Part shown: in pieces, positions 4,830-15,343 of the stretch | How positions within the stretch are numbered: position 1 is the stretch's first letter | How the letters are laid out: each line of letters begins with the position of its first letter | Assembly: GCA_036338695.1 (NCBI GenBank) | Contig: JAYZBQ010000042.1 | Span: forward strand, 20,696 to 84,695 | Length of the DNA stretch: 64,000 nt | Source of the DNA: Myxococcota bacterium | GTDB taxonomy: Bacteria > Myxococcota > UBA4151 | Direction of reading: 5' to 3' | Program-made: the position numbers and the translations under genes | Notes under the pieces: generated by a model | Told to the model about the DNA's origin: nothing | Database searches by the model: none | Seen by the model: the letters and a program-made list of their open reading frames with translations, nothing else

Positions 4830-7724
4830 CTAAAGCGCCGATCGAGCCTCGGCGATGAGCAGCATCAGCTCTGAATCCGCAGCTGCGCCTAACTGCTCAC
4901 CAATGGTCTCCGCCTCAACGAGTGCTTTCTCGGCTTGGTCTCGAGCCCCTGCTTTTGCTTCGATCAAGCCGCGCCGAGACAGCAGCAACCCCAACTGGAG
5001 CGTATGAACCCCACGCAGTTGCTGCTCACCGTGATTGAAAAGTTCTCGAGCTTCGACGAGCTGACCACTGTCGGCTCTCATCATGGCGAGTATCGAGCGG
5101 AAAGCAGCCGATGCAGGGTGGCTAAACTCATCGCATTGCTCGATGGCTTGTATCAAATAATACTGAGCATTTACTGGCTCATTATGTTCATAGAGCGCTG
5201 AGCCTAAGTTGCCGCTAAATATGGCTGAATTAAGAGGGTTGCCTATTTCTTTGGATAAGCTGATCGCCTGGTGAGCATACTCCAAACATTCGCTTAATCG
5301 ATCTTGGTGTTTCATCAAGACGCTGATGTTATTGAGTAAGATCGCTTTCGCTCGCTGATCATGTAACTGCTCATAGATTGCTTTCGCGTCCAAATAAGTG
5401 CTTTCAGCGTATTCAAATTGCCCCAAGTCCGTATAAATAATGCCTAGATTATTAAGGGCGGTCGCTAGAGCGCGATGGTCCTGAGTCTGTCTCGCCAACT
5501 TACGTGCTTGCTCAAGCGTGGCTATCGATTGCTCAGGGGCTCCATTAAACTTCTCTAGGTTGGAGCGAAGAATCCAGAACCGCGTTTGAAAGAAGTCGTC
5601 ACCTGAAACCGCAATCAGTTGTTCTGCACGGCGAATCAGCTGGGTACATTTATCCATCTCACGGTTTAGTTCACCAGTTACACTGAGTAAGTAGAGCGCT
5701 TCGATCTCAAGAGTCTGGACCGATAAACTTTCTGCTCGTTTCAGCGCGTCAGAAACCACTTCGACAGCTTGCAAGGTACGCGAAGCGCGTATGAGAATGT
5801 CGGCGAACAAAAACTGCAGACGCACTCGCGCAGAACCCTCAGGAACCATACCGATGAGATTTTCAAGCCAGTCTGCGGTCAAACCAAAGGGTCCGCGCCA
5901 AAGAGCACCGTGCCCGACGACCAACGCGCAACCACAAGCCGACTCGAAGTCTGCGACCTGCAGCGCTGCCTGCACCGCAGTTCGGCAGTTGTTAACCTCG
6001 AGTAGCGCCTCGCGAGATCGGTCCACATTACCCATGGAGCGAATCGATTCGAGCGTTCCAAGCTGGGCATAATATTGGGCATGACGGCGGCGAACATCGT
6101 GCTCATCAACACTCTTTTCGAGCGCATAGATTTGAACACTCTTCGTCATCTGATAGCGGACGTGCCCCTCAATCGGCTCCACACGACGCACGAGACTATG
6201 ATCAACGAGTTTTTCAAGCACGTCCATGATCCAAAGATCCGGATCAGTAGCCTCTAAATCAATGACCGCCTCGGCCGCTTCAAGCGTACAGCCCCCCTCA
6301 AAAACAGCCAGTTGGCTCAGCGCTAACTGCTCAACGGGCTGCAACAAACTCCAAGACCAATCGATCGCCGAGCGCAACGTCGCTTGACGTTCGTTTTGCC
6401 GCTTACGCGAGCCTTTCAACAACTTAAAGCGCTGACCTAAACGCTCTAGGATCTGCTCTGCAGACAGCATACGAATACGCGCCGCAGCCAACTCAATAGC
6501 GAGCGGCATCTGATCAAGCTGCTCGACAATCTCTCGTACAACGGTCTCGAGTTCAGGGGTACGAACAAAGCGCTTTTGAATCGCCGATGCGCGATCAAAA
6601 AATAGCTCCATTGCATTATCGACACTCAGCGGCTCGATATCGAAAATATCTTCACCCTCAACCCGAAGAGCGACTTGTGATGCGACTAAAAATACAGCGT
6701 GCGGCGCCCTACGCAGCCAGTCATTTAACGTTTCGCCAGCGACTTGAATGATCTGTTCAAAATTATCAAAAATGATCAAAACGCGCTGGCGACCGCGGAT
6801 GGCATAACTCAGCTGTTCTTGTGGATCGGCTTCGGATAACTGCACATCAAGTGCCGCTGCTGTGGCGACCAATACATCCACAAGAGTTTCCGCACGACTC
6901 AGGTCAACAAACCACACGCCACCAACAAATTCAGCCAACATTTGATGTCCGAACCGCTGATAAAGGCTCGTCTTACCAACACCGCCAAGGCCTAAGCCAG
7001 TGATCAGCCGATGCCCCTCAGCAATTCGTCGTTTTAGTTCATCTAGATCGTGTACACGGCCGACAAATCGATCCACTCGATGAGGCAAATTGGTCTTCTT
7101 TAGGTCAACGGTTTTGATCTTCGGAAAACGTCGTCCTTTAAGACCGTTTGGCAAAATCTGATGCAGATGCTCGTGCTGCTCAAGCCCCTTTAGCCGGTGT
7201 TCGCCTAAGTCGACTACGTCACCACTATCGCTCCGATAGACAACCGACCCGCTGACGAGAACCTGACCCCCATGACCTGCCCCACCAACACGGGCAGCTC
7301 GATTGACCATCCCACCAAAATAATCCATCCGTCCGGTGTTCGGGTCTGGCTGACAAATGGGGTCGCCAGAATGGACGCCCATCCGCACGCGCAAGCCGCG
7401 AAACAAGGGTTTTCCATCCTCGCTGAGGTGCTCCGAAGCCTCCTCTTGAGACAGGATCGCTTCCGGCCACGGAGCCTGCATCAAACGCTCTTGGACACGC
7501 AGACACCAATCAACGGCTTGCTGACCTGTGCTAAACGCAACCATGAAGGCATCGCCTTCAGTTTTCACTTCGTAGCCGCCTGCGGCTAGCAACGTGGCTC
7601 TCATCATCTCATCATGAAGCGCGAGCGCTTGCCTCATAGCACCCGGAACACGATCCCACAGCGCCGTCGAACCCTCGACGTCAGTGAATACGAGAGTAAC
7701 TGTACCAATCGGTGCTTCCATCAA
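4830..7724 (-). CDS. Class III adenylate/guanylate cyclase fused to a STAND (AfsR/MalT-like) NTPase and a TPR sensor
   Basis: Cyclase motifs FTDVEGST, KTEGDAFM, RVRMGVHSG and DYFGGMVNRAARV. Walker A GLGGVGKT, Walker B LIIFDNFE, QMPLAIELAA (GxPLA-like). C-terminal TPRs (ALNNLGIIY). Confidence 0.9.
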   Translation of the reverse strand: MMEAPIGTVTLVFTDVEGSTALWDRVPGAMRQALALHDEMMRATLLAAGGYEVKTEGDAFMVAFSTGQQAVDWCLRVQERLMQAPWPEAILSQEEASEHLSEDGKPLFRGLRVRMGVHSGDPICQPDPNTGRMDYFGGMVNRAARVGGAGHGGQVLVSGSVVYRSDSGDVVDLGEHRLKGLEQHEHLHQILPNGLKGRRFPKIKTVDLKKTNLPHRVDRFVGRVHDLDELKRRIAEGHRLITGLGLGGVGKTSLYQRFGHQMLAEFVGGVWFVDLSRAETLVDVLVATAAALDVQLSEADPQEQLSYAIRGRQRVLIIFDNFEQIIQVAGETLNDWLRRAPHAVFLVASQVALRVEGEDIFDIEPLSVDNAMELFFDRASAIQKRFVRTPELETVVREIVEQLDQMPLAIELAAARIRMLSAEQILERLGQRFKLLKGSRKRQNERQATLRSAIDWSWSLLQPVEQLALSQLAVFEGGCTLEAAEAVIDLEATDPDLWIMDVLEKLVDHSLVRRVEPIEGHVRYQMTKSVQIYALEKSVDEHDVRRRHAQYYAQLGTLESIRSMGNVDRSREALLEVNNCRTAVQAALQVADFESACGCALVVGHGALWRGPFGLTADWLENLIGMVPEGSARVRLQFLFADILIRASRTLQAVEVVSDALKRAESLSVQTLEIEALYLLSVTGELNREMDKCTQLIRRAEQLIAVSGDDFFQTRFWILRSNLEKFNGAPEQSIATLEQARKLARQTQDHRALATALNNLGIIYTDLGQFEYAESTYLDAKAIYEQLHDQRAKAILLNNISVLMKHQDRLSECLEYAHQAISLSKEIGNPLNSAIFSGNLGSALYEHNEPVNAQYYLIQAIEQCDEFSHPASAAFRSILAMMRADSGQLVEARELFNHGEQQLRGVHTLQLGLLLSRRGLIEAKAGARDQAEKALVEAETIGEQLGAAADSELMLLIAEARSAL

Positions 7725-7865
7725 CCGTCTCCACGTGATGCATAATCTATCTCGGAAGTCCGTGTTAAGCGTCCATCACCTGACCAAAAATTTTGAAGGT
7801 AATCGCTTGCTTGTGAGCTATCACACCGTCAACTTCGACGCTCGCTGCTTCTCTTGATGAACCAC

Positions 7866-9446
7866 ATGATGACCAACACTTTTCCAAAGACCGACCTAGC
7901 AACACACGACGTCACCAACCAAGCCGAGGGCTTCGAAGGGGTCTCGCTCTACGAGAGTGACCCGCGCCTAGCTGCGTGGCTGCGCGGGCGCACTGACGAG
8001 GCGCAGCGAGAGCAGATCGAAGCCTTCGGTCAAACCCTCGGGCGCCATGAGTCCTGGCAGCTCGCAGAGCAAGCCAACCGTTTCCCTCCCGAGTTAGCCA
8101 CCTTCGATCGCTCCGGACGCCGGCTCGATGAGGTCCGCTATCACCCGGCCTACCACGAGCTGATGCGGCTGGGCTGCGAAGCGGGCGTTGCGAGCTTGGC
8201 TTGGCGCAGCGGCTCCGGCGGGCATCAAGCGCACGCTGCGCTCGAGTACATGCTCATCCAGGTCGAGCCGGGCGTCTGCTGCCCGCTGACGATGTCCTAC
8301 GCCGGCGCGCCGGTCCTGGCTCAATCTCCCGAGCTAGCGGACTTCCACGAGCGACTGATCACCCCGAGCTACGACGCGAGCAGCCGCCCCTGGCAAGACA
8401 AACGCGCCGTCACGCTCGGTATGGCGATGACCGAGAAGCAAGGAGGCAGTGACCTGCGTCAGACGCAAACGCGCGCCGAGCGCTGCGCGGACGGCTACCG
8501 ATTGACCGGGCACAAGTGGTTCTGCTCAGCGCCGATGTCGGACGCCTTTTTGATGCTGGCGCAAACGGCCGAGGGCTTGAGCTGCTTCTGGGTGCCTCGC
8601 TGGCAACCCGACGGACAGCGCAATGGGATCGAGCTGCAGCGCCTGAAAGATAAGCTCGGCAACCGCGCCAACGCCTCGAGCGAGATCGAGCTTCAGCGAG
8701 CCTATGGGATCTTGATCGGCGAGCCCGGCCGGGGGATCGCCACCATCCTTGAGATGGTCCATCACACCCGGCTCGACTGCGCCGTGGCGGCAGCCGGCTT
8801 GATGCGCCAAGCCGTCGTGCGAGCGATCCACCACGCACGGCAGCGGCAAGCCTTCGGTAAGGCGCTCATCGAGCACGACCTGATGGCGCGGGTCCTGGCG
8901 GCGATCGACCTCGAGGCTGAGGCCGCCACGCTGCTGAGCCTGCGCGCCGCAGAGCTCTGCGATGCAGGGCCAAGCCCGCTGGCGCGGCTCGGCGTCGCGA
9001 TCGCAAAGTACTGGAACAACAAACGCTGCCCGTTGGTGGTCGCCGAAGCGATGGAGGCGCTCGGAGGCGCTGGCTACATCGAAGCGTCCGTGATGCCTCG
9101 GCTGTACAAAGAGGCGCCCCTCAACGGCATCTGGGAGGGCTCTGGCAACGTGATCTGCCTGGACATCCTCAGGACCACCCGGCGCCTGCCTGAGGTCGTC
9201 GACGCCCTGCGGAACGAGCTGGGCGCGCAGGGAGAGTCCGTGCTGGAGTGGCTCCCCTCAGCCGAGCCCGCCGACGCCCGGGCGCTGGCGGGCCAGCTGG
9301 CGCGCGCGTGGCAACGCAGCCTGCTCGAGCGCCACAGCGTGCCTGGCGCAGCCCAACACCTGAGCAGCGCAGTCGGCGCTTTTGGAGAGTGCTTCCCTGT
9401 GGCGGGCGCAGGCGCTCGCTTGCGAGCGAGCTTACCGGAGCTCTAG
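7866..9446 (+). CDS. aidB: AidB-like acyl-CoA dehydrogenase (start uncertain, 7854-7869)
   Basis: THDVTNQ N-terminus, CPLTMSYA, GMAMTEKQGGSD, GHKWFCSAPMSDAF, RLKDKLGNRANASSE, EAPLNGIWEGSGNV. Confidence 0.85.
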   Translation: MMTNTFPKTDLATHDVTNQAEGFEGVSLYESDPRLAAWLRGRTDEAQREQIEAFGQTLGRHESWQLAEQANRFPPELATFDRSGRRLDEVRYHPAYHELMRLGCEAGVASLAWRSGSGGHQAHAALEYMLIQVEPGVCCPLTMSYAGAPVLAQSPELADFHERLITPSYDASSRPWQDKRAVTLGMAMTEKQGGSDLRQTQTRAERCADGYRLTGHKWFCSAPMSDAFLMLAQTAEGLSCFWVPRWQPDGQRNGIELQRLKDKLGNRANASSEIELQRAYGILIGEPGRGIATILEMVHHTRLDCAVAAAGLMRQAVVRAIHHARQRQAFGKALIEHDLMARVLAAIDLEAEAATLLSLRAAELCDAGPSPLARLGVAIAKYWNNKRCPLVVAEAMEALGGAGYIEASVMPRLYKEAPLNGIWEGSGNVICLDILRTTRRLPEVVDALRNELGAQGESVLEWLPSAEPADARALAGQLARAWQRSLLERHSVPGAAQHLSSAVGAFGECFPVAGAGARLRASLPEL

Positions 9447-9946
9447 ACTTGGGTCTGGAGCGTCTGCTTGACGCCGCTCGTCGCCTTCTCGACGACCTTC
9501 GAGGTCAGCTCGAGCTCCTGGCTGAACTTGTATACACCCGCCTGAACGGCGAGCAGCTCGGTGGGGCTAAACGAGCGCCCCGACGTGGCGAGCTTGATGA
9601 TCTTATCGAGCTTGCCCTGGCCATCCATGACGCCGCCAAAGAGCTTCTCGATGCCGGCTTCACCCGCCTTGCTGGGGGCGTTCACCTTGGCGCCGCGACT
9701 CTCGATCAAGCTCCGGACCTTGTTCATTCGCGTCGACTCGGTCTTTTGCGCCTGCTGGACGATGTCCATCCCTTGGATTTTATCCGCCTGTTGCGTCGCC
9801 TCGGCACCGCCGGCCTTGTTGACCATATTGGCGAAATTCGCTTGTCCGGTTCCCTGGGCTTGCTCAGCTTGCGCCGCCTGCTGCTGAATCTGTTGCAGCT
9901 GTTGCAGCATCTGCGAGGGATTTCCGCTTCCAGTGATTCCAGACAT
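9443..9946 (-). CDS. T3SS inner-rod-like protein (SctI/YscI/HrpB2-like)
   Basis: Q/A-rich N-terminus and C-terminal SPTELLAVQAGVYKFSQELELTSKVVEKATSGVKQTLQTQV, matching the P-x-x-LL-x-x-Q...L-x-x-K-x-V-x-K...L-x-x-Q pattern of inner-rod subunits. RBS AAGGAGG. Confidence 0.75.
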   Translation of the reverse strand: MSGITGSGNPSQMLQQLQQIQQQAAQAEQAQGTGQANFANMVNKAGGAEATQQADKIQGMDIVQQAQKTESTRMNKVRSLIESRGAKVNAPSKAGEAGIEKLFGGVMDGQGKLDKIIKLATSGRSFSPTELLAVQAGVYKFSQELELTSKVVEKATSGVKQTLQTQV

Positions 9947-9987
9947 CTCCGCCTCCTTCGAGCGACACGACGCGCCGCTACGTAAAC

Positions 9988-10015
9988 CCTTATCGGCTCC
10001 CGATTACCAAGGTTG
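9988..10015 (-). promoter_or_regulatory. Sigma28/FliA-like promoter for the rod-like gene
   Basis: Minus strand CAACC-N14-CCGATAAGG, containing a perfect GCCGATAA -10 element that overlaps the sigma-factor stop codon. Confidence 0.6.
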
Positions 10016-10715
10016 TGTCATTTAAACGTTTTTCCAACATCTGCCGCAAGCGACCGATCGCTTGGGCGTGCTTGCGGCTCATCCACGACTTGGAGATCCC
10101 CATCTCTTCGCCGAGCTCTTTGAGCGTACGGTCTTCGAAATAGAACCCAAGGATGATGGTGCGATCCTCCTCCTTCATCTCATCCATCACCTCACGGACG
10201 ATCCCCACCATCTGGCGTTTCTCGACCTGGCTGTGGATCTTAGCGCCGCCGTCGTGGCTTGGGTCAAACCCCTCGATGCCCTCGAGCGAGGTCACAAAGA
10301 CGGTCACCAAGTTGGCGATCACGTCGGCGGAGCCTTGCACCTGCTCCTCCAAGGTGCGCTTGTCCTCACCGAGGACCGACGCGTGGCGGTCGGATTCGTA
10401 CGTGAGGTAGTCGGACGCGCCGCGCTCGGCGCGCACGTGCGCGTACTCGGCGCGGTTGAGCCAACCGAATTTACGCAAGCCGTCATAGATCGCGCCCTGG
10501 ATGCGGTAATACGAGTAGGAGGAAAAGCGCGCCCCTCCCTCGGGGTCGAAGCGCTGCGACGCCTCGACGAGACCGACCATGCCATAAGCGATCAGGTCAT
10601 CGAGCTCGAGGTTACGCGGCAGCTTACGGCTGATCTTGTGCGCGATCGCTCGCACGAGGCCTTGATGCTCGTTAACCAGCGCTCGCTGTTCTGCCTCTGT
10701 GGTCTTGGCGCTCAC
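9990..10715 (-). CDS. FliA/WhiG-family (sigma28-type) sigma factor
   Basis: LVRAIAHKISRKLP...DDLIAYGMVGLVEA..RFDP..GARFSSY..YRIQGAIYDGLR (region 2) and TLKELGEEMGISKSWMSRKH (region 4). Confidence 0.9.
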   Translation of the reverse strand: MSAKTTEAEQRALVNEHQGLVRAIAHKISRKLPRNLELDDLIAYGMVGLVEASQRFDPEGGARFSSYSYYRIQGAIYDGLRKFGWLNRAEYAHVRAERGASDYLTYESDRHASVLGEDKRTLEEQVQGSADVIANLVTVFVTSLEGIEGFDPSHDGGAKIHSQVEKRQMVGIVREVMDEMKEEDRTIILGFYFEDRTLKELGEEMGISKSWMSRKHAQAIGRLRQMLEKRLNDTTLVIGSR

Positions 10716-11098
10716 TTTTTACCTCGCTCCGCCAAGCGACGAAACTGATCCGCGAGCCGATCCGCCATGCGTGGGTCGTCATCGAGCACGCGCGCAACCT
10801 GATCCTCGATTTTGCGCACGCCCTTACCCTGCAACCCTTTGAAGCGGTCCTTAATCACCGCCTGGACCGCCCGGCGGATCGCTTCGCGACGATCTTCGAT
10901 ACCACCGTCGCGCAGCTCCTCAGCGATCTGTTGCCAAGCCTCTGAAAGCGCTGAACGCGCCTCGTCTGGGTCGAGCGCGGTCGTTTTGTCGACCTGCTCG
11001 ACCTTGAAGGTCTTGGACGCCTTCCCAGTCTGAGCGGGGCCTTTGACGCCCTTTGGTCCTTTCGGCCCTCGAGGACCGCTACCTCCACCTACTCGCAA
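10712..11098 (-). CDS. Hypothetical protein of the T3SS cassette (yscH position)
   Basis: 128 aa, G/P/K-rich N-terminus and helical C-terminus. Translationally coupled to the genes on both sides. Confidence 0.65.
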   Translation of the reverse strand: MRVGGGSGPRGPKGPKGVKGPAQTGKASKTFKVEQVDKTTALDPDEARSALSEAWQQIAEELRDGGIEDRREAIRRAVQAVIKDRFKGLQGKGVRKIEDQVARVLDDDPRMADRLADQFRRLAERGKK

Positions 11099-11100
11099 AG

Positions 11101-11517
11101 CTAATCCTCCACATCAAAGCAGCCCAACTCTTGGGCTTCTATGAGGTTCGACGCAAACTTCTTGGCGGATCGGTCGGCGCCCGCAATCGAGATGGCGTGG
11201 CGACAGGCTTCGAGCCCCTCGTCGACCTGACCACCCCAGAGCAAGGCTTCGCCGAGATGCGCCCAACAGGCAGCCCGGTCCGGCTCACGCGCCACGGCGT
11301 CGCGCTGGGCTTTCTCGGCGAGAGCGAGCTTCCCCTTGGCGAAATGAAGGTTGCCGAGCAGCATCGGAGGGACGCCGGAGTGCGGCAGCAAATGCCCCAC
11401 ACCATCGAAGACGTCGCTGGCCGGCTTGTGCCGACCCATCTGCGCGAGCAGCTGCCCCGCCTCGAGCAGGAGCGCCACCGTCTGCTGTTCGACCTCAACA
11501 AGTCCCTGTATTTTCAT
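11101..11517 (-). CDS. Small TPR protein, T3SS chaperone-like (YscG/SycD type)
   Basis: 138 aa with about 3 TPRs (LLEAGQLLAQMGRHKPASDVF; LGNLHFAKGK; WAHLGEALLWGG). Confidence 0.75.
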   Translation of the reverse strand: MKIQGLVEVEQQTVALLLEAGQLLAQMGRHKPASDVFDGVGHLLPHSGVPPMLLGNLHFAKGKLALAEKAQRDAVAREPDRAACWAHLGEALLWGGQVDEGLEACRHAISIAGADRSAKKFASNLIEAQELGCFDVED

Positions 11518-11543
11518 CGATTGATTCCTCTTCGCCCTGCGCC

Positions 11544-11588
11544 AAAAAAGGCATCGGCGGAGACTTCATAGCCTCCGCCGTGCCTTTT
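11544..11588 (-). terminator. Intrinsic terminator after the needle-like gene
   Basis: Minus strand GGCACGGCGGAGGC-tatgaa-GTCTCCGCCGATGCC followed by TTTTTT. Confidence 0.75.
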
Positions 11589-11618
11589 GACCATCTACGC
11601 GCTGTGGCTTGTGCCAGC

Positions 11619-12128
11619 CTAGCGGATGTTGTTGATGCTGTTCTTCGTCGTGTCGTGCTTCGTCTTCAGGACGTTCGAGATCGTCGAGAACTGACGGTTC
11701 TCACCCTGCATCTTCTGCTGAAGCGTGAGGTACTGAAGGTTAAAGCTCATCTGCATCTCTTGAAGCTGCTTGGTCTGGTTCATCAGATCCTGCTGGGCGT
11801 TCCCCGTGCTCGCTGGCGCCTGGCCGTTCTGGCTGGTGACGCCAGGACCGGTACCGGGGATGTTCATGGTGCCGCCCTGACCGTAGTCACCGACGCTACC
11901 AGCTGCCGAGTTCGCAGCCCCTGCCATACCCTGCGCTGCTGCGTTCACGACCGCACCACCTGGGACGTAAGGCGCTGCCACCGCCGTCGCACCCGCCATG
12001 GCGTTGGCGCCTGCTGCGACGCCACGGCTAACCATCGACCCGAAGTCGTTACGAGGGGTTTGTCGGTTGACCTGCGGCTGGTTGTTGATTCGAACAGACC
12101 CACCGTTGTTGAGACGATTCACAGACAT
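11619..12128 (-). CDS. T3SS needle/filament-subunit-like protein (SctF-like C-terminus with an extended N-terminus)
   Basis: Start reassigned to ATG 12128 (RBS AAGGAG), 169 aa. C-terminus LQYLTLQQKMQGENRQFSTISNVLKTKHDTTKNSINNIR resembles the ...SN-x-x-K-x-x-x-D-x-x-x-x-I-x-x-N-x-R end of PrgI/YscF needles. Confidence 0.65.
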   Translation of the reverse strand: MSVNRLNNGGSVRINNQPQVNRQTPRNDFGSMVSRGVAAGANAMAGATAVAAPYVPGGAVVNAAAQGMAGAANSAAGSVGDYGQGGTMNIPGTGPGVTSQNGQAPASTGNAQQDLMNQTKQLQEMQMSFNLQYLTLQQKMQGENRQFSTISNVLKTKHDTTKNSINNIR

Positions 12129-12173
12129 GGCATTCTCCTTCTTACACAGTTCCGGCTCATCGCCGTTCACAGA

Positions 12174-12201
12174 CCTTATCGGTGAGCCTACTCCCCGGTT
12201 G
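12174..12201 (-). promoter_or_regulatory. Sigma28/FliA-like promoter for the needle-like gene
   Basis: Minus strand CAACC-N14-CCGATAAGG, with the same boxes and spacing as the motif at 9988-10015. Confidence 0.6.
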
Positions 12202-12427
12202 CGGCCTCGTTGCTCATTTTTTCGCGCAATTCGAACAACTCGTCGAAAAGAGCACGCGCCCGGCGAACCGCCAACTGCGCTCTGCGGGCGCCGGCCTTGG
12301 CTTTCGGGTCTCCGGAGCGCATCAGCTCATCGAGCGCGTCCTCCAGCGGCTGAAGTTGGTCATTAATCCCCGCTTCATCGCCCTCAAGGGCAGCCTCGAT
12401 ACGAGCAAAGATACTGTCGTCAGCCAT
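12188..12427 (-). CDS. Small helical protein in the YscE (needle co-chaperone) position
   Basis: 79 aa predicted helical hairpin immediately upstream of the needle-like gene. TAATG overlap with the upstream gene. Confidence 0.6.
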   Translation of the reverse strand: MADDSIFARIEAALEGDEAGINDQLQPLEDALDELMRSGDPKAKAGARRAQLAVRRARALFDELFELREKMSNEAATGE

Positions 12428-12939
12428 TAAGGTTCTCCCGATTGTTCGGCGATGAGTGGCTCGCGCCCTTCATTACAGTATTCCGCCAAGTTTTCCATCC
12501 CGTCACCGTCGTTATCGCAGACGCTAAAGTTGATCTCGGCCGGCTCAAGGTTTCCGAGACATCGCCGCGTGGCGAGCGCCGGCTGGATGACGACGTTCTG
12601 GCGAGGTTCCTCCACCGAGGTCAAATCGATCCGGCCGCCTTGCTGGGCGAGCACCAGCAGCGCGCCGTCGATCAGCACAAAGTACTCGAGCACAACGGAG
12701 CGCTCCAACCCGGCGCTGATCTCATCGCACTCACCGAGCACCCGGTCCTGCTCACGATCGATGGACAACGGGCAGGCGAGCGCATGGCCGCTCACCCGCA
12801 AGCGCGCCCCGGCGTTTGAGAGGTCTCGCGCACACTCAAGCTTGAGAAAGTCAGGGACCGAGACGCCCGTGGTCGCCACCGACGGCGCCCCGCCGCAAGC
12901 GATCATGAGGCCCATGAACACCATCCACCCCGCCCTCAT
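12427..12939 (-). CDS. Hypothetical lipoprotein with a C-terminal Ca-binding DxDxDG motif
   Basis: Start reassigned to 12939 (ATGA overlap). Lipobox MIAC; DNDGDGMENLAE motif. Confidence 0.7.
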   Translation of the reverse strand: MRAGWMVFMGLMIACGGAPSVATTGVSVPDFLKLECARDLSNAGARLRVSGHALACPLSIDREQDRVLGECDEISAGLERSVVLEYFVLIDGALLVLAQQGGRIDLTSVEEPRQNVVIQPALATRRCLGNLEPAEINFSVCDNDGDGMENLAEYCNEGREPLIAEQSGEP

Positions 12940-13499
12940 GGCGACGCGCTCGCGCTGACCGGGACCAAGGTGACGCTGCTCACCGGACGCGCTCGAAAGA
13001 GGGCGTAGGACCCCCACGCGACTCCGGTCACGGCGAGGGTGCCCACCGCAGCGGTCAGCCAGCGTCGGGGCGGTCGCCGCTGCCACCAGGGCGTCGCGAC
13101 GGTTGGCGGAGGCGCCTGAGTGAGCCCATCCCATGGCCGAAGCGCAGGTAAGACCCCGGTCGGCACGTTCAGCACAAAGGGCACCTCGGCTGAGCCGACA
13201 CGCGTCGGGCCGTTGCCGTGCTCATCAAAAACCTCGAAAAAGTAGCGCAGCCCCGCGCGTGCGGGGACCACCGCCTCGAACCAGCCCTTGGCCACCTCAT
13301 CGGGCTCGATGGTCTTCCATTCCTCCGTCTCAGTGCGCACGTAGAGTGCCGCTCCGAACAGGGGCGACTCATCACGCACCTCAAACCAGAGCCGCCAATT
13401 CCCTTGAGCGTCCGCCATCGTCGGCGGCTCGTGCACCACACGCGGAGGGTTCAGGTCGGCCGCAGGCGCAGCCCAAAGGATCAGAGCGAGTACCATCAC
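12936..13499 (-). CDS. Hypothetical exported Ig-like protein with a C-terminal hydrophobic segment
   Basis: Signal-like N-terminus, PPRVVHEPP...LRYFFEVFD..GN beta-sandwich pattern, PWW...TM tail. Confidence 0.65.
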   Translation of the reverse strand: MMVLALILWAAPAADLNPPRVVHEPPTMADAQGNWRLWFEVRDESPLFGAALYVRTETEEWKTIEPDEVAKGWFEAVVPARAGLRYFFEVFDEHGNGPTRVGSAEVPFVLNVPTGVLPALRPWDGLTQAPPPTVATPWWQRRPPRRWLTAAVGTLAVTGVAWGSYALFRARPVSSVTLVPVSASASP

Positions 13500-13561
13500 A
13501 AGCAGCGCTTACGCCAAAAGGGTGCGTCGTGACTACCGGTCGCACCCGGGCATCACGCCAG

Positions 13562-15343
13562 CTAAGGTCGCTGATGGACAAGCTTGAGACGAAACTCGCC
13601 ATGGCTCGGGTGCCGAAACCGCAAGGTCTCGGTGGCGCCGAGGGAGAGGCTCAGACTCCGCTCCGGTGGGGTTCGCCCCAGCGCAGGCCCTGACTTTCGA
13701 TAGACGATCGCCCAAGGCGCCGCGCGCACCACGAGCTGCATCTGCTGGGCGATGCGGCGCCAGCGCACGGTCACGCGAAACGCGCCCGCACGCGCCGTGA
13801 ACGTCCCGCTTTTTTGACGACGCGCTTCGACGCTCAACCCGCTCACCGTCAACGAGGTGCTGCTCGCCACGAGGAAAGAGGTCTTTGCGCGCGTAGGCTG
13901 AGTAGGTCGTACCCGCGCCTGAGGAGCAGGCGGAGGAGGCGCTTTCGCTCCGGCGTCTACTGTCGGCGGCGCAGCCTGAGCGGTTGCGCCGGCGTCCGGC
14001 GATGGGACCGGAACCGATGCTTGGCTGGCCCCCTCATCCGGTGCGGGCGCGATGCTTTGCGGCGGTGAGTTCTCAGGCTGCCGGAGCCCCCACAGAAGGA
14101 CGGCTGCGGCGATCACCATCACGACCACCCACAGTCTTCGCGACTGCACCACCGCGGCGCGCACAAAGAGACTCGTCGTCAAACCGCTCGGCTCAGGCGA
14201 CCGGCTGGGGGTGGCGCGTGCGACCTCGGGCTGCGGAGCGTCCTGCGGGTCTGCGCGCTCGCTTTCCTCGCTCTCGTCACTCCCCTCACGCCAAAAATCG
14301 GTCCACCCGTCAGGCTTCTCCATACCAGCCGGCAAGGTCGGTAAACTCTCAACAGGAGGATGGGTCAGCCGATCGAGTCGCTTGAGCTCGCCCGGGTCCG
14401 CCTCGGCGAGCACCTGGGTGATGTAGTCTTGCTCCTCGGCAAAGAGCGAGCGCATCAGCTCAGCGATGGAGTCGGCTCGCGGCAACTCCTTGGCGACCCG
14501 CCGCAGCGCATGGGCGAGTTCATCCCCGTCATGATACCGCGCCGCGTTGCTCTTGGCCATGGCTCGCTGCAGGACCGGCTCAAGCGCAAACAAGACAGGG
14601 TCGATCATCGGCGGTAACTCGTCACTCTGGATCGCAGCGAGCGTGCGCGCCAGCGACCCTCGATCAAAGGGGTGACGCCCAAGCAGGGTCTCGTACAAAA
14701 CAATCCCGAGCGAGAAGAGATCCGTCGAGCCGTCGACCGGTTTACCCTCGCTCTGCTCGGGCGACATGTAGAGAAACTTCCCCTTGAGCAGCCCGGTCTC
14801 CGTTTTGCCGTGGTGGAGCTCGCTTTTGGCGATACCGAGGTCGATAATCTTTACCTCGCCCGCCCACGAGACGAGCAGGTTGGCCGGGTTGATGTCGCGA
14901 TGAACCAGATTGAGCGGCTCACCGCCGTGGTCGGTGGCTCGGTGCGCATAGGCGAGCCCCTCGGCGGCTTGCGCAATGAGCTCGCAGGCGATCGCAGGGG
15001 GCAAAGGGCGGCCTTGCGCCTCACAACGCTGCAGCAAGACCTTAAGATCGACCCCGCTGACAAACTCCATCTCCAGATAGAACTCATCACCGATCCGTCC
15101 GGCGTCGTGAACCTGGACGATGCGATCGTGATGGAGCCGAGACGCCAGCCGCGCCTCGGCAAAAAACATCTCTAAGAAGTCGGCTCGATCCGCCAGGTGG
15201 CTGAGCATGCGCTTGACGACGACATGACGACTAAAACCTTCGGCGCCCTCTTTGCGGGCAAGAAAGACCTCACCCATACCGCCTTGAGCGATTTTATGCA
15301 GGAGCAGGTACGGTCCGAACCGATCCCCAACGCGTGCGGGCAC
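13562..15343 (-). CDS. Eukaryotic-like Ser/Thr protein kinase with a TM segment and Pro-rich periplasmic tail
   Basis: IAQGGMGEVF, VVVKRM, HRDINPANLL, DLGIAK, GKFLYMSPEQ, DLFSLG. TM near residues 405-422. Confidence 0.93.
   Translation of the reverse strand: MPARVGDRFGPYLLLHKIAQGGMGEVFLARKEGAEGFSRHVVVKRMLSHLADRADFLEMFFAEARLASRLHHDRIVQVHDAGRIGDEFYLEMEFVSGVDLKVLLQRCEAQGRPLPPAIACELIAQAAEGLAYAHRATDHGGEPLNLVHRDINPANLLVSWAGEVKIIDLGIAKSELHHGKTETGLLKGKFLYMSPEQSEGKPVDGSTDLFSLGIVLYETLLGRHPFDRGSLARTLAAIQSDELPPMIDPVLFALEPVLQRAMAKSNAARYHDGDELAHALRRVAKELPRADSIAELMRSLFAEEQDYITQVLAEADPGELKRLDRLTHPPVESLPTLPAGMEKPDGWTDFWREGSDESEESERADPQDAPQPEVARATPSRSPEPSGLTTSLFVRAAVVQSRRLWVVVMVIAAAVLLWGLRQPENSPPQSIAPAPDEGASQASVPVPSPDAGATAQAAPPTVDAGAKAPPPPAPQARVRPTQPTRAKTSFLVASSTSLTVSGLSVEARRQKSGTFTARAGAFRVTVRWRRIAQQMQLVVRAAPWAIVYRKSGPALGRTPPERSLSLSLGATETLRFRHPSHGEFRLKLVHQRP

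Follow-up and report, generated by a model that had tools for sequence, protein, structure and literature searches.

Evidence for a divergent, chaperoned homolog of the needle subunit SctF in the "needleless" type III secretion system of Myxococcota

How does a secretion machine reported to lack a needle deliver its cargo? [quoted passage not shown] In addition, the evolutionary account of injectisomes rests on the loss of the needle subunit, SctF, in the basal myxobacterial branch (PMC3459982). We analyzed a 64,000-nucleotide stretch of DNA (hereafter, the window) from a Myxococcota bacterium (assembly GCA_036338695.1, contig JAYZBQ010000042.1, positions 20,696 to 84,695), in which six genes at 9443..12427 form a T3SS cassette. 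Our analyses indicated that a 169-aa protein encoded in this cassette is probably a divergent, chaperoned SctF homolog and the main needle or filament subunit, and that the "needleless" label of the myxobacterial system is likely wrong.

The six open reading frames (ORFs) of the cassette, their transcription order and their boundary with the convergent aidB gene (7854-9446), which the end of the last cassette gene abuts, were all found at the places and sizes given by a first-pass annotation of the window. All six are on the minus strand and they encode, in transcription order, a 79-aa helical protein (12188..12427), the 169-aa protein (11619..12128), a 138-aa TPR protein (11101..11517), a 128-aa protein (10712..11098), a 241-aa FliA-type sigma factor (9990..10715) and a 167-aa homolog of the inner-rod protein SctI (9443..9946). 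The 79-, 169- and 128-aa proteins had no informative match in scans with Pfam and NCBIfam. The same gene order is present in M. xanthus, where the F-like MXAN_2434 is followed by a TPR gene (MXAN_2435), an ortholog of the 128-aa protein (Q1D9L7), a gene listed as a sigma-70 factor (MXAN_2437) and an SctI-type gene (MXAN_2438). The 169-aa protein is the ortholog of MXAN_2434, with which it shares 31% identity over 181 aa, end to end. The product of that gene is named "hypothetical protein MXAN_2434" in strain DK1622, and it falls in one 90%-identity cluster with the corresponding protein from the long T3SS locus of a complete genome (G102). A table of PMC11804543 lists it under the UniProt name "Type III secretion protein", and a generic connection with T3SSs is thus already on record.

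The likeness to SctF lies in the C-terminal helix of the 169-aa protein (residues ~130-169; 11622..11741, minus strand). We compared a profile of 44 such tails with an SctF profile of 33 needle sequences, which were taken from 37 proteobacterial loci with PF09392 matches (four were filtered out, and several are near-identical). In a single hhalign comparison the two profiles matched with a probability of 92.6% (E 4.5e-7, score 35.6, 34 columns), while 60 column shuffles scored 10.2 +/- 2.2 (maximum 15.1) and the reversed profile scored 8.3. The tail profile matched the SctI profile at 0.5%, and the SctI, E and G profiles gave at most 0.6%. The six flagellar axial C-termini of the source genome, compared as single sequences, reached at most 0.7%, and neither Flg_bbr_C nor a flagellin-type D0 helix was among the 25 families listed for the 44 tails. 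Conserved residues of the tail (Q, SN, K, D, I, N and R) line up with the SctF consensus in a single register without gaps (score 27.5 at shift 0, compared to 10.5 for the next best shift), in a test that was anchored on the common K-x3-D and is partly circular; Q, S, N, K, D and N are invariant across the 44 tails. By the profile, shuffle and register controls, the homologous helix ends at the C-terminus of the protein, as it does in members of the SctF family.

Searches of larger sets of proteins gave the same indication. When the SctF profile was run over 685 ORFs of myxobacterial loci, the first six matches were the five orthologs of the 169-aa protein and one SctI, and when the tail profile was run over 296 ORFs of needle loci, SctF proteins filled most of the top 30. 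The Pfam model T3SS_needle_F, run over five whole genomes, placed the long-locus ortholog first in all four Myxococcaceae (E 0.004-0.12, sub-cut-off), and 11 of its 12 matches in these four genomes were to the 169-aa family or SctI. For MXAN_2434, needle models were the sole Pfam and the sole NCBIfam matches at E<=1 (E 0.017 and 0.019). In the ESM Atlas, 11% of the members of one cluster of look-alikes (score 0.90) had PF09392. Together, these sequence comparisons make it very probable that the tail is homologous to SctF, as had been suggested in the first-pass annotation.

The gene neighborhoods were those expected of sctF. A scan of genome contigs identified 378 relatives, and counts of loci given here refer to the best 80 of these 378, many of which end at contig ends. 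Orthologs of the TPR protein were identified in 44 of the 80 loci, of the sigma factor in 32, of SctI in 31, of the 79-aa protein in 30 (two of which are spurious matches on the opposite strand), of the 128-aa protein in 29 and of SctJ in 11. Eight of the 11 loci that reach sctJ have the order F-TPR-sigma-sctI-sctJ-K(-L-N-O-P-Q), where F is the gene of the 169-aa family, and three are short, Anaeromyxobacter-type loci with F-sctI-sctJ. Genome G102 has one locus of each type, a long one (79aa-F-TPR-128aa-sigma-sctI-J-K-L-N-O-P-Q-fliO-R-S-T-U...sctV) and a short one (F-sctI-J...R-S-T-U-V), and each has one F copy adjoining sctI or just upstream of it. The F gene adjoins sctI-sctJ, lies between the E- and G-type chaperone genes, or both, which is the position of an sctF gene. 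One long locus was observed to have a tandem pair of F-like genes with identical tails (L094:9395-10764).

Of the 301 Myxococcota genomes sampled, 258 have the 169-aa family, which extends far beyond the Cystobacterineae and is usually present as two copies in the largest family. A strong SctJ match (E<=1e-21) was present in 253 of the 258 family-positive genomes versus 3 of the 43 family-negative ones, by a hand tally in which kin are not independent. An unpublished genome, G164, enters these tallies once and bears on no other result.

The first-pass annotation had described the cassette as an orphan, separate from the genes of the export apparatus. This holds within the window; at the scale of the genome, the cassette corresponds to the leading part of the long T3SS* locus of myxobacteria, which has been split up in the source lineage. 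The source genome, an assembly of 3.36 Mb in 99 contigs that is 93.6% complete and has close homologs labeled Myxococcota, has the cassette on contig C42, and whole-genome searches placed all matches to sctJ, sctR, sctU, sctN and FlhA-type genes on other contigs and none on C42. Contig C59 has sctJ, a gene in the K position, sctL, sctN and sctO; C45 has a gene in the P position, sctQ, a fliO-like gene, sctR (above cut-off) and sctT; and C74 has sctU (above cut-off), a gene in the X position, an SctY-like gene and a gene for a 365-aa protein. SctV was not found in this 93.6%-complete assembly, in which only FlhA was detected, and the flanks of sctV in relatives do not map to contig ends; SctV was above cut-off in four of four relatives. 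The MXAN_2434-2438 gene order, with SctJ, L, N, O, Q, R, T and U present and SctV via the relatives, places the system in the long Myxo non-flagellar T3SS (NF-T3SS) of Abby and Rocha (2012). Contamination as the origin of the scattered T3SS contigs was ruled out, as their G+C and tetranucleotide profiles agree. The second export system of the genome is a flagellar set on C76 and C48, and the presence of a full set of flagellar genes, with three flagellins and their own FliA, beside a scattered T3SS in a small marine-type Myxococcota genome is an observation in its own right.

Each of three neighbors of the F gene also matched its proposed counterpart, the TPR protein matching the YscG type, the 79-aa protein matching the YscE type best and the 167-aa protein matching SctI (hhalign). 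The SctI-like nature of the 167-aa protein, noted in the first-pass annotation, was supported by weak YscI/SctI family matches (E 0.011/0.038) and by a 12-sequence proteobacterial SctI profile, which placed the protein first of the 28,937 six-frame ORFs in the genome (E 0.007); its M. xanthus counterpart is annotated as YscI/HrpB family. We also observed that databases widely label the myxobacterial SctI "ATP-dependent helicase HrpB" (e.g., L105:9857-10432, L108:14622-15107), a confusion with the HrpB of T3SSs.

The 138-aa protein, judged from its profile matches, is a TPR protein with homology to needle chaperones, as had been proposed. Its best T3SS model was NCBIfam CdsG (E 5e-5, sub-cut-off), and hhalign matched it at 83% (E 1e-5) to six proteins in the YscG/SsaH position downstream of proteobacterial sctF, although its M. 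xanthus ortholog scores higher on LcrH/SycD than on CdsG. For the 79-aa protein, the assignment as YscE fared less well: hhalign against 11 proteins upstream of proteobacterial sctF gave a weak match (6%, E 0.006, 65 columns), but hidden Markov models of the YscE type (11 sequences) and YscG type (6 sequences), run over the source genome, ranked the cassette genes outside the top 8. The 79-aa protein is weakly supported as a candidate YscE-type co-chaperone.

The E-F-G complex that the first-pass annotation had anticipated was modeled from three chains, the TPR protein, the 79-aa protein and the last 62 residues of the 169-aa protein. The model scored 0.91, compared to 0.01 for the best of three controls, the mark used for this score being one reached by 116 of 157 solved pairs and 2 of 215 mismatched pairs. 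The runs agreed in at least 82% of contacts, and the pLDDT (predicted local distance difference test) of the partner chains was at least 73. In the model, residues 145-169 of the 169-aa protein lie in the TPR groove, where they contact the invariant E19 and E90 of the TPR protein, and only residues 3-6 of the 79-aa protein contact the tail. Such a placement is consistent with the PscE-F-G complex, in which the needle C-terminus sits in the PscG groove (PMC3084799).

The F gene also has its own promoter and terminator, as had been noted. The promoter is of the sigma28 type (GCAAC-N16-CGATAA; 12176..12202, minus strand), and an intrinsic terminator-like hairpin with 11 pairs, eight of them G-C, and a T run lies 3' of the gene (11555..11580, minus strand). 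A scan for sigma70 promoters at the cassette found none. The motif [GAC]CAAC-N15-17-CGATA[AC] (spacer 16-17), the -10 part of which we take to resemble the sigma28 box, was present upstream of 38 of 47 F orthologs, with 0 on the reverse strand, and of 19 of 28 sctI orthologs; the sctI site in the window is at 9990..10016 (minus strand). Before the four other cassette genes tested it occurred in at most 1 of 29-44. As the motif was derived from these same sites, its specificity for gene and strand served as the control. The 241-aa sigma factor, whose best NCBIfam match is FliA (E 2e-36, sub-cut-off), is FliA/WhiG-like and is distinct from the flagellar FliA encoded on C76.

Transcription of the gene is indicated by the supplement of PMC11804543, in which MXAN_2434 has ~6,000-7,000 normalized counts in M. 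xanthus alone and a log2 fold change of +0.82 with Bacillus subtilis, and in whose tables it is modestly up with two prey. For the source lineage, RNA-library contigs span the 169-aa gene in four of four runs, which were chosen for containing the stretch and in which DNA carry-over is possible. The contigs of two RNA studies end at 12154, which lies ~20 bases beyond the promoter and is no more than a weak hint; the contigs give no basis for ranking expression.

A number of observations weigh against the assignment of the 169-aa protein as the needle subunit. All of its needle scores are sub-cut-off: the orthologs reach 13-21 bits, under the curated cut-offs of 29.4 and 41.7 (PF09392 and TIGR02105), and the protein from the window has no Pfam or NCBIfam needle match at E<=1. 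In the source genome the SctF profile ranked it 13th (E 13), behind the 365-aa protein of C74 and the three flagellins, and the top match of the needle model in genome G055 was not the ortholog. Across the 44 tails, the Pfam needle model matched 6 and an unrelated helical bundle 16, and in NCBIfam SctF matched 2 and GldL 8. The hhalign alignment between tail and SctF spans only 34 columns, with a 4-residue gap included. Searches of PDB sequences returned no match for the full-length profile and only V-ATPase D and HEN1 for the tail profile (E 0.6-1.2). The AlphaFold2 model of the 169-aa protein was poor (pLDDT 54, predicted template modeling score 0.18), having a helical hairpin at residues 29-72 and a separate helix at 111-168 where SctF is normally a helix-loop-helix hairpin of ~70-110 aa; a counterpart of the N-terminal helix of that hairpin was not shown in the 169-aa protein, and a Foldseek search with this low-confidence model was empty. 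In addition, three chains and author-built alignments fall outside the calibration of the complex tool, and the modeled complex may have passed due to its likeness to solved E-F-G complexes.

Genomic context provided further points on the same side. The short loci have no E/G partners, and the sigma28-type motif was absent from the short-locus F copies examined. No secretin was found at any of the T3SS loci identified, and the three secretins of the incomplete source assembly have type IV pilus-like, type II secretion system and Tad-like contexts, judging by their neighbors. Approximately 26 of the 80 loci have the same tail on stand-alone proteins outside the Myxococcota (labeled Bacteroidota, Acidobacteriota and others), and an FlhA/SctV match was missing in four of five such genomes tested, which may be incomplete. 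The 169-aa protein, with its putative chaperones, is SctF-like, yet outside the formal family cut-off and size. Lastly, it competes for the needle role with paralogous SctF-like tails, as at least two SctF-type paralogs are indicated by their sequences.

These paralogs are the basis of the alternative that survives best. In it, a 74-aa protein or, in the source lineage, the 365-aa protein would form the bulk needle, and the 169-aa protein would be an SctF paralog that acts at the tip, as an adaptor or in membrane contact (Bsp22/EspA- or translocator-like). The 74-aa gene lies in the long locus of Myxococcaceae, has the size of an ordinary needle gene and is present in 2-8 copies per genome. 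In hhalign its tail scored 94% with SctF and 97% with the F tail, making it a second candidate, by sequence, for a needle or filament protein. In the long locus of G102 two identical copies (L106:5251-5475 and 7666-7890) were observed antisense to the operon beside LcrH-type chaperones (M. xanthus Q1D9J3). The 365-aa protein, encoded after sctU-X-Y (G000:C74:17535-18632, L018:14121-15218), has a glycine-rich stretch, a sigma28-type promoter and an SctF-like tail; it is the top match of the SctF profile in the source genome (91% by hhalign), matches the F and 74-aa tails as well, and has a weak match to the translocon protein SseD. Its tail presumably also resembles Bsp22. Bordetella has both a needle protein, BscF, and a Bsp22 tip filament (PMC7498569), and in the N-terminal part of the 169-aa protein a mildly hydrophobic G/A hairpin is conserved (hydropathy 1.25-1.9 over 19 residues). 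These N-terminal residues, about 100 in number, had been described as a G/A/N-rich extension; the extension is present, but is not only of low complexity, as R22, F29, G36, A52, P53 and P56 are invariant across 83 homologs and a hairpin was predicted there with low confidence. However, it is the 169-aa family that is flanked by E/G-type chaperones, with binding predicted, and no other SctF-like gene was seen in the short locus. It also occurs in 258 of 301 genomes compared to 58 of 301 for the 74-aa query, in a less sensitive, single-sequence search that did not find the 74-aa gene in the source genome. We consider a tip or adaptor role unlikely, with at least two SctF-type paralogs as candidates for the bulk filament.

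A role inside the envelope is less probable again. The 169-aa protein could be needle-derived but form only a few periplasmic turns, either extending the rod or plugging the export gate so as to switch or seal it, or it could be a secreted checkpoint substrate, in a system that is functionally needleless and passes its cargo to a Tad/Kil pilus. The lack of any detected T3SS secretin, the large N-terminal extension, the published model in which Kil tips stand in for the needle (PMC12075869) and the presence of the same promoter at the Tad pilin operon in the source family are all consistent with this. On the other hand, an SctP-position gene, SctU, SctX/Y-like genes and LcrH chaperones have been retained, and a gene with its own promoter, terminator and chaperone pair suits a high-copy polymer. 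Convergence, in which the tail is a generic amphipathic helix and the protein an ordinary T3SS substrate or an unrelated secreted protein, would fit the sub-threshold scores, the matches to unrelated helical families and the stand-alone proteins of T3SS-less genomes, but is highly improbable given the shuffle, reversal and register controls, the genome-wide top ranks, the cognate matches of three neighbors and the complex model.

Under our preferred reading of the 169-aa protein as the main needle or filament subunit, the cassette sigma factor would fire the F and sctI promoters, leading needle and rod subunits to be made together. The chaperone pair would block premature assembly, as in Yersinia and Pseudomonas, with the C-terminal helix of the subunit predicted to be held in the groove of the neighboring TPR chaperone. 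After export the subunit would likely stack into a needle or short filament on top of the SctI rod, its tail forming the core of the tube and its extra N-terminal hairpin and G-rich linker facing outward. In the absence of a T3SS secretin such a filament may be periplasmic or may exit via a borrowed secretin, most plausibly that of Tad/Kil. Because an SctF-like tail is modeled in a neighboring chaperone, the machine likely builds a needle or short filament.

The system most similar to that of the source genome is T3SS* of M. xanthus, which also has no secretin at its locus. The source locus differs in being broken up among no fewer than four places (C42, C59, C45 and C74), with sctV unassembled, and its genome differs in having a full flagellar set and no detected short locus or 74-aa gene. 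The YscEFG complex of Yersinia (PscEFG in Pseudomonas, AscEFG in Aeromonas) is encoded in the same E-F-G order followed by one gene and then sctI, and likewise comprises a small helical protein, a subunit with an SctF-type tail, here modeled in a TPR groove, and a TPR chaperone. Unlike YscF, the source subunit has double the usual length and includes a G-rich linker and an N-terminal hairpin that is conserved; the E match is weak, a sigma gene is inserted before sctI, there is no SctC and scores are under the family cut-offs. The Bordetella T3SS locus likewise has its own sigma factor (BtrS-BtrA) and possibly a second filament protein, Bsp22 (PMC7498569). The source sigma is FliA-type rather than of the extracytoplasmic function type of BtrS, and the likeness to Bsp22 and BtrA is by description, not sequence.

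Abby and Rocha described the Myxo systems as without SctF and inferred its loss, with sub-threshold matches marked in Fig. 5 of their paper (PMC3459982), and both M. xanthus clusters are given in PMC10196010. Our literature search found no needle-subunit assignment for the MXAN_2434-2464 cluster, though an earlier remark is possible. The published deletion of mxan_2438-2451 spares MXAN_2434 (PMC12075869) and does not test this gene because it was left intact. With MXAN_2434, its chaperone MXAN_2435 and the 74-aa paralogs as needle-type subunits, the question of delivery is turned into single-gene experiments in a model organism. More broadly, we tentatively speculate that the earliest-branching non-flagellar T3SS may have kept its needle, with most Myxococcota having a chaperoned, N-extended SctF (the MXAN_2434 family) and paralogous filament proteins. 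Under one sigma28-type regulon, the filament, lacking a secretin of its own, would pass via the Tad/Kil secretin and bring lytic cargo into bacterial prey, and the tail module would also have been passed on to T3SS-less phyla, serving there as a domain that self-assembles.

The 128-aa protein has a disordered start followed by four helices (model pLDDT 62) and is conserved in 29 of the 80 loci. The proposal that it is YscH-like found no backing: no Pfam or NCBIfam family or Foldseek match was returned, the best VIA match (Z 6.1) was to unrelated chains, and YopR was not among the fold matches listed, though a YopR likeness may exist. A role as a secreted anti-sigma factor is a guess. Three genes upstream of the cassette (window 12427-15343), encoding a lipoprotein-like protein of 170 aa, a protein of 187 aa and a Ser/Thr kinase, are syntenic with it in many lineages; the first two have matches in 13-17 loci outside the family, and none of the three was seen upstream of the cassette in G102.

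The conserved promoter provides a means of listing candidate substrates of the system. The source genome has 39 motif sites compared to 17-22 with wrong spacings, and they include the 365-aa gene, two genes adjoining LcrH-type chaperones and a TadE-like pilin operon. The last of these sites was kept in three relatives, with only the -10 part left in a fourth, and co-regulation of Tad tips and the T3SS is possible. The operon has TadE-like and Tad-domain pilin genes (L201:2204-4850, G000:C53) behind the promoter, an arrangement kept in G002, G004 and G005. Some of the sites precede unannotated genes with low-complexity N-termini (C8:21611, C92:23822, C48:354112, C48:205380, C73:2668, C80:22631, C81:15175 and C22:45201), two of the eight adjoining LcrH-type chaperones. 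The unannotated genes behind the motif are candidate T3SS substrates by this measure, with about half of the 39 sites expected by chance.

The tail was also observed on other proteins. In Chitinophagaceae, Acidobacteriota, proteobacteria and Verrucomicrobiae (loci L073, L079, L080, L082-L084, L086-L091, L093, L095-L101 and L104), the ~55-aa tail, 60-70% identical, ends stand-alone proteins that often have a signal-peptide-like start (judged by eye) and a coiled coil before it, an apparent reuse of a needle-type helix. In other Myxococcota families (L189-L191, L195 and L200), open frames of 118-530 aa, several per genome, have a further conserved SctF-like variant of the tail.

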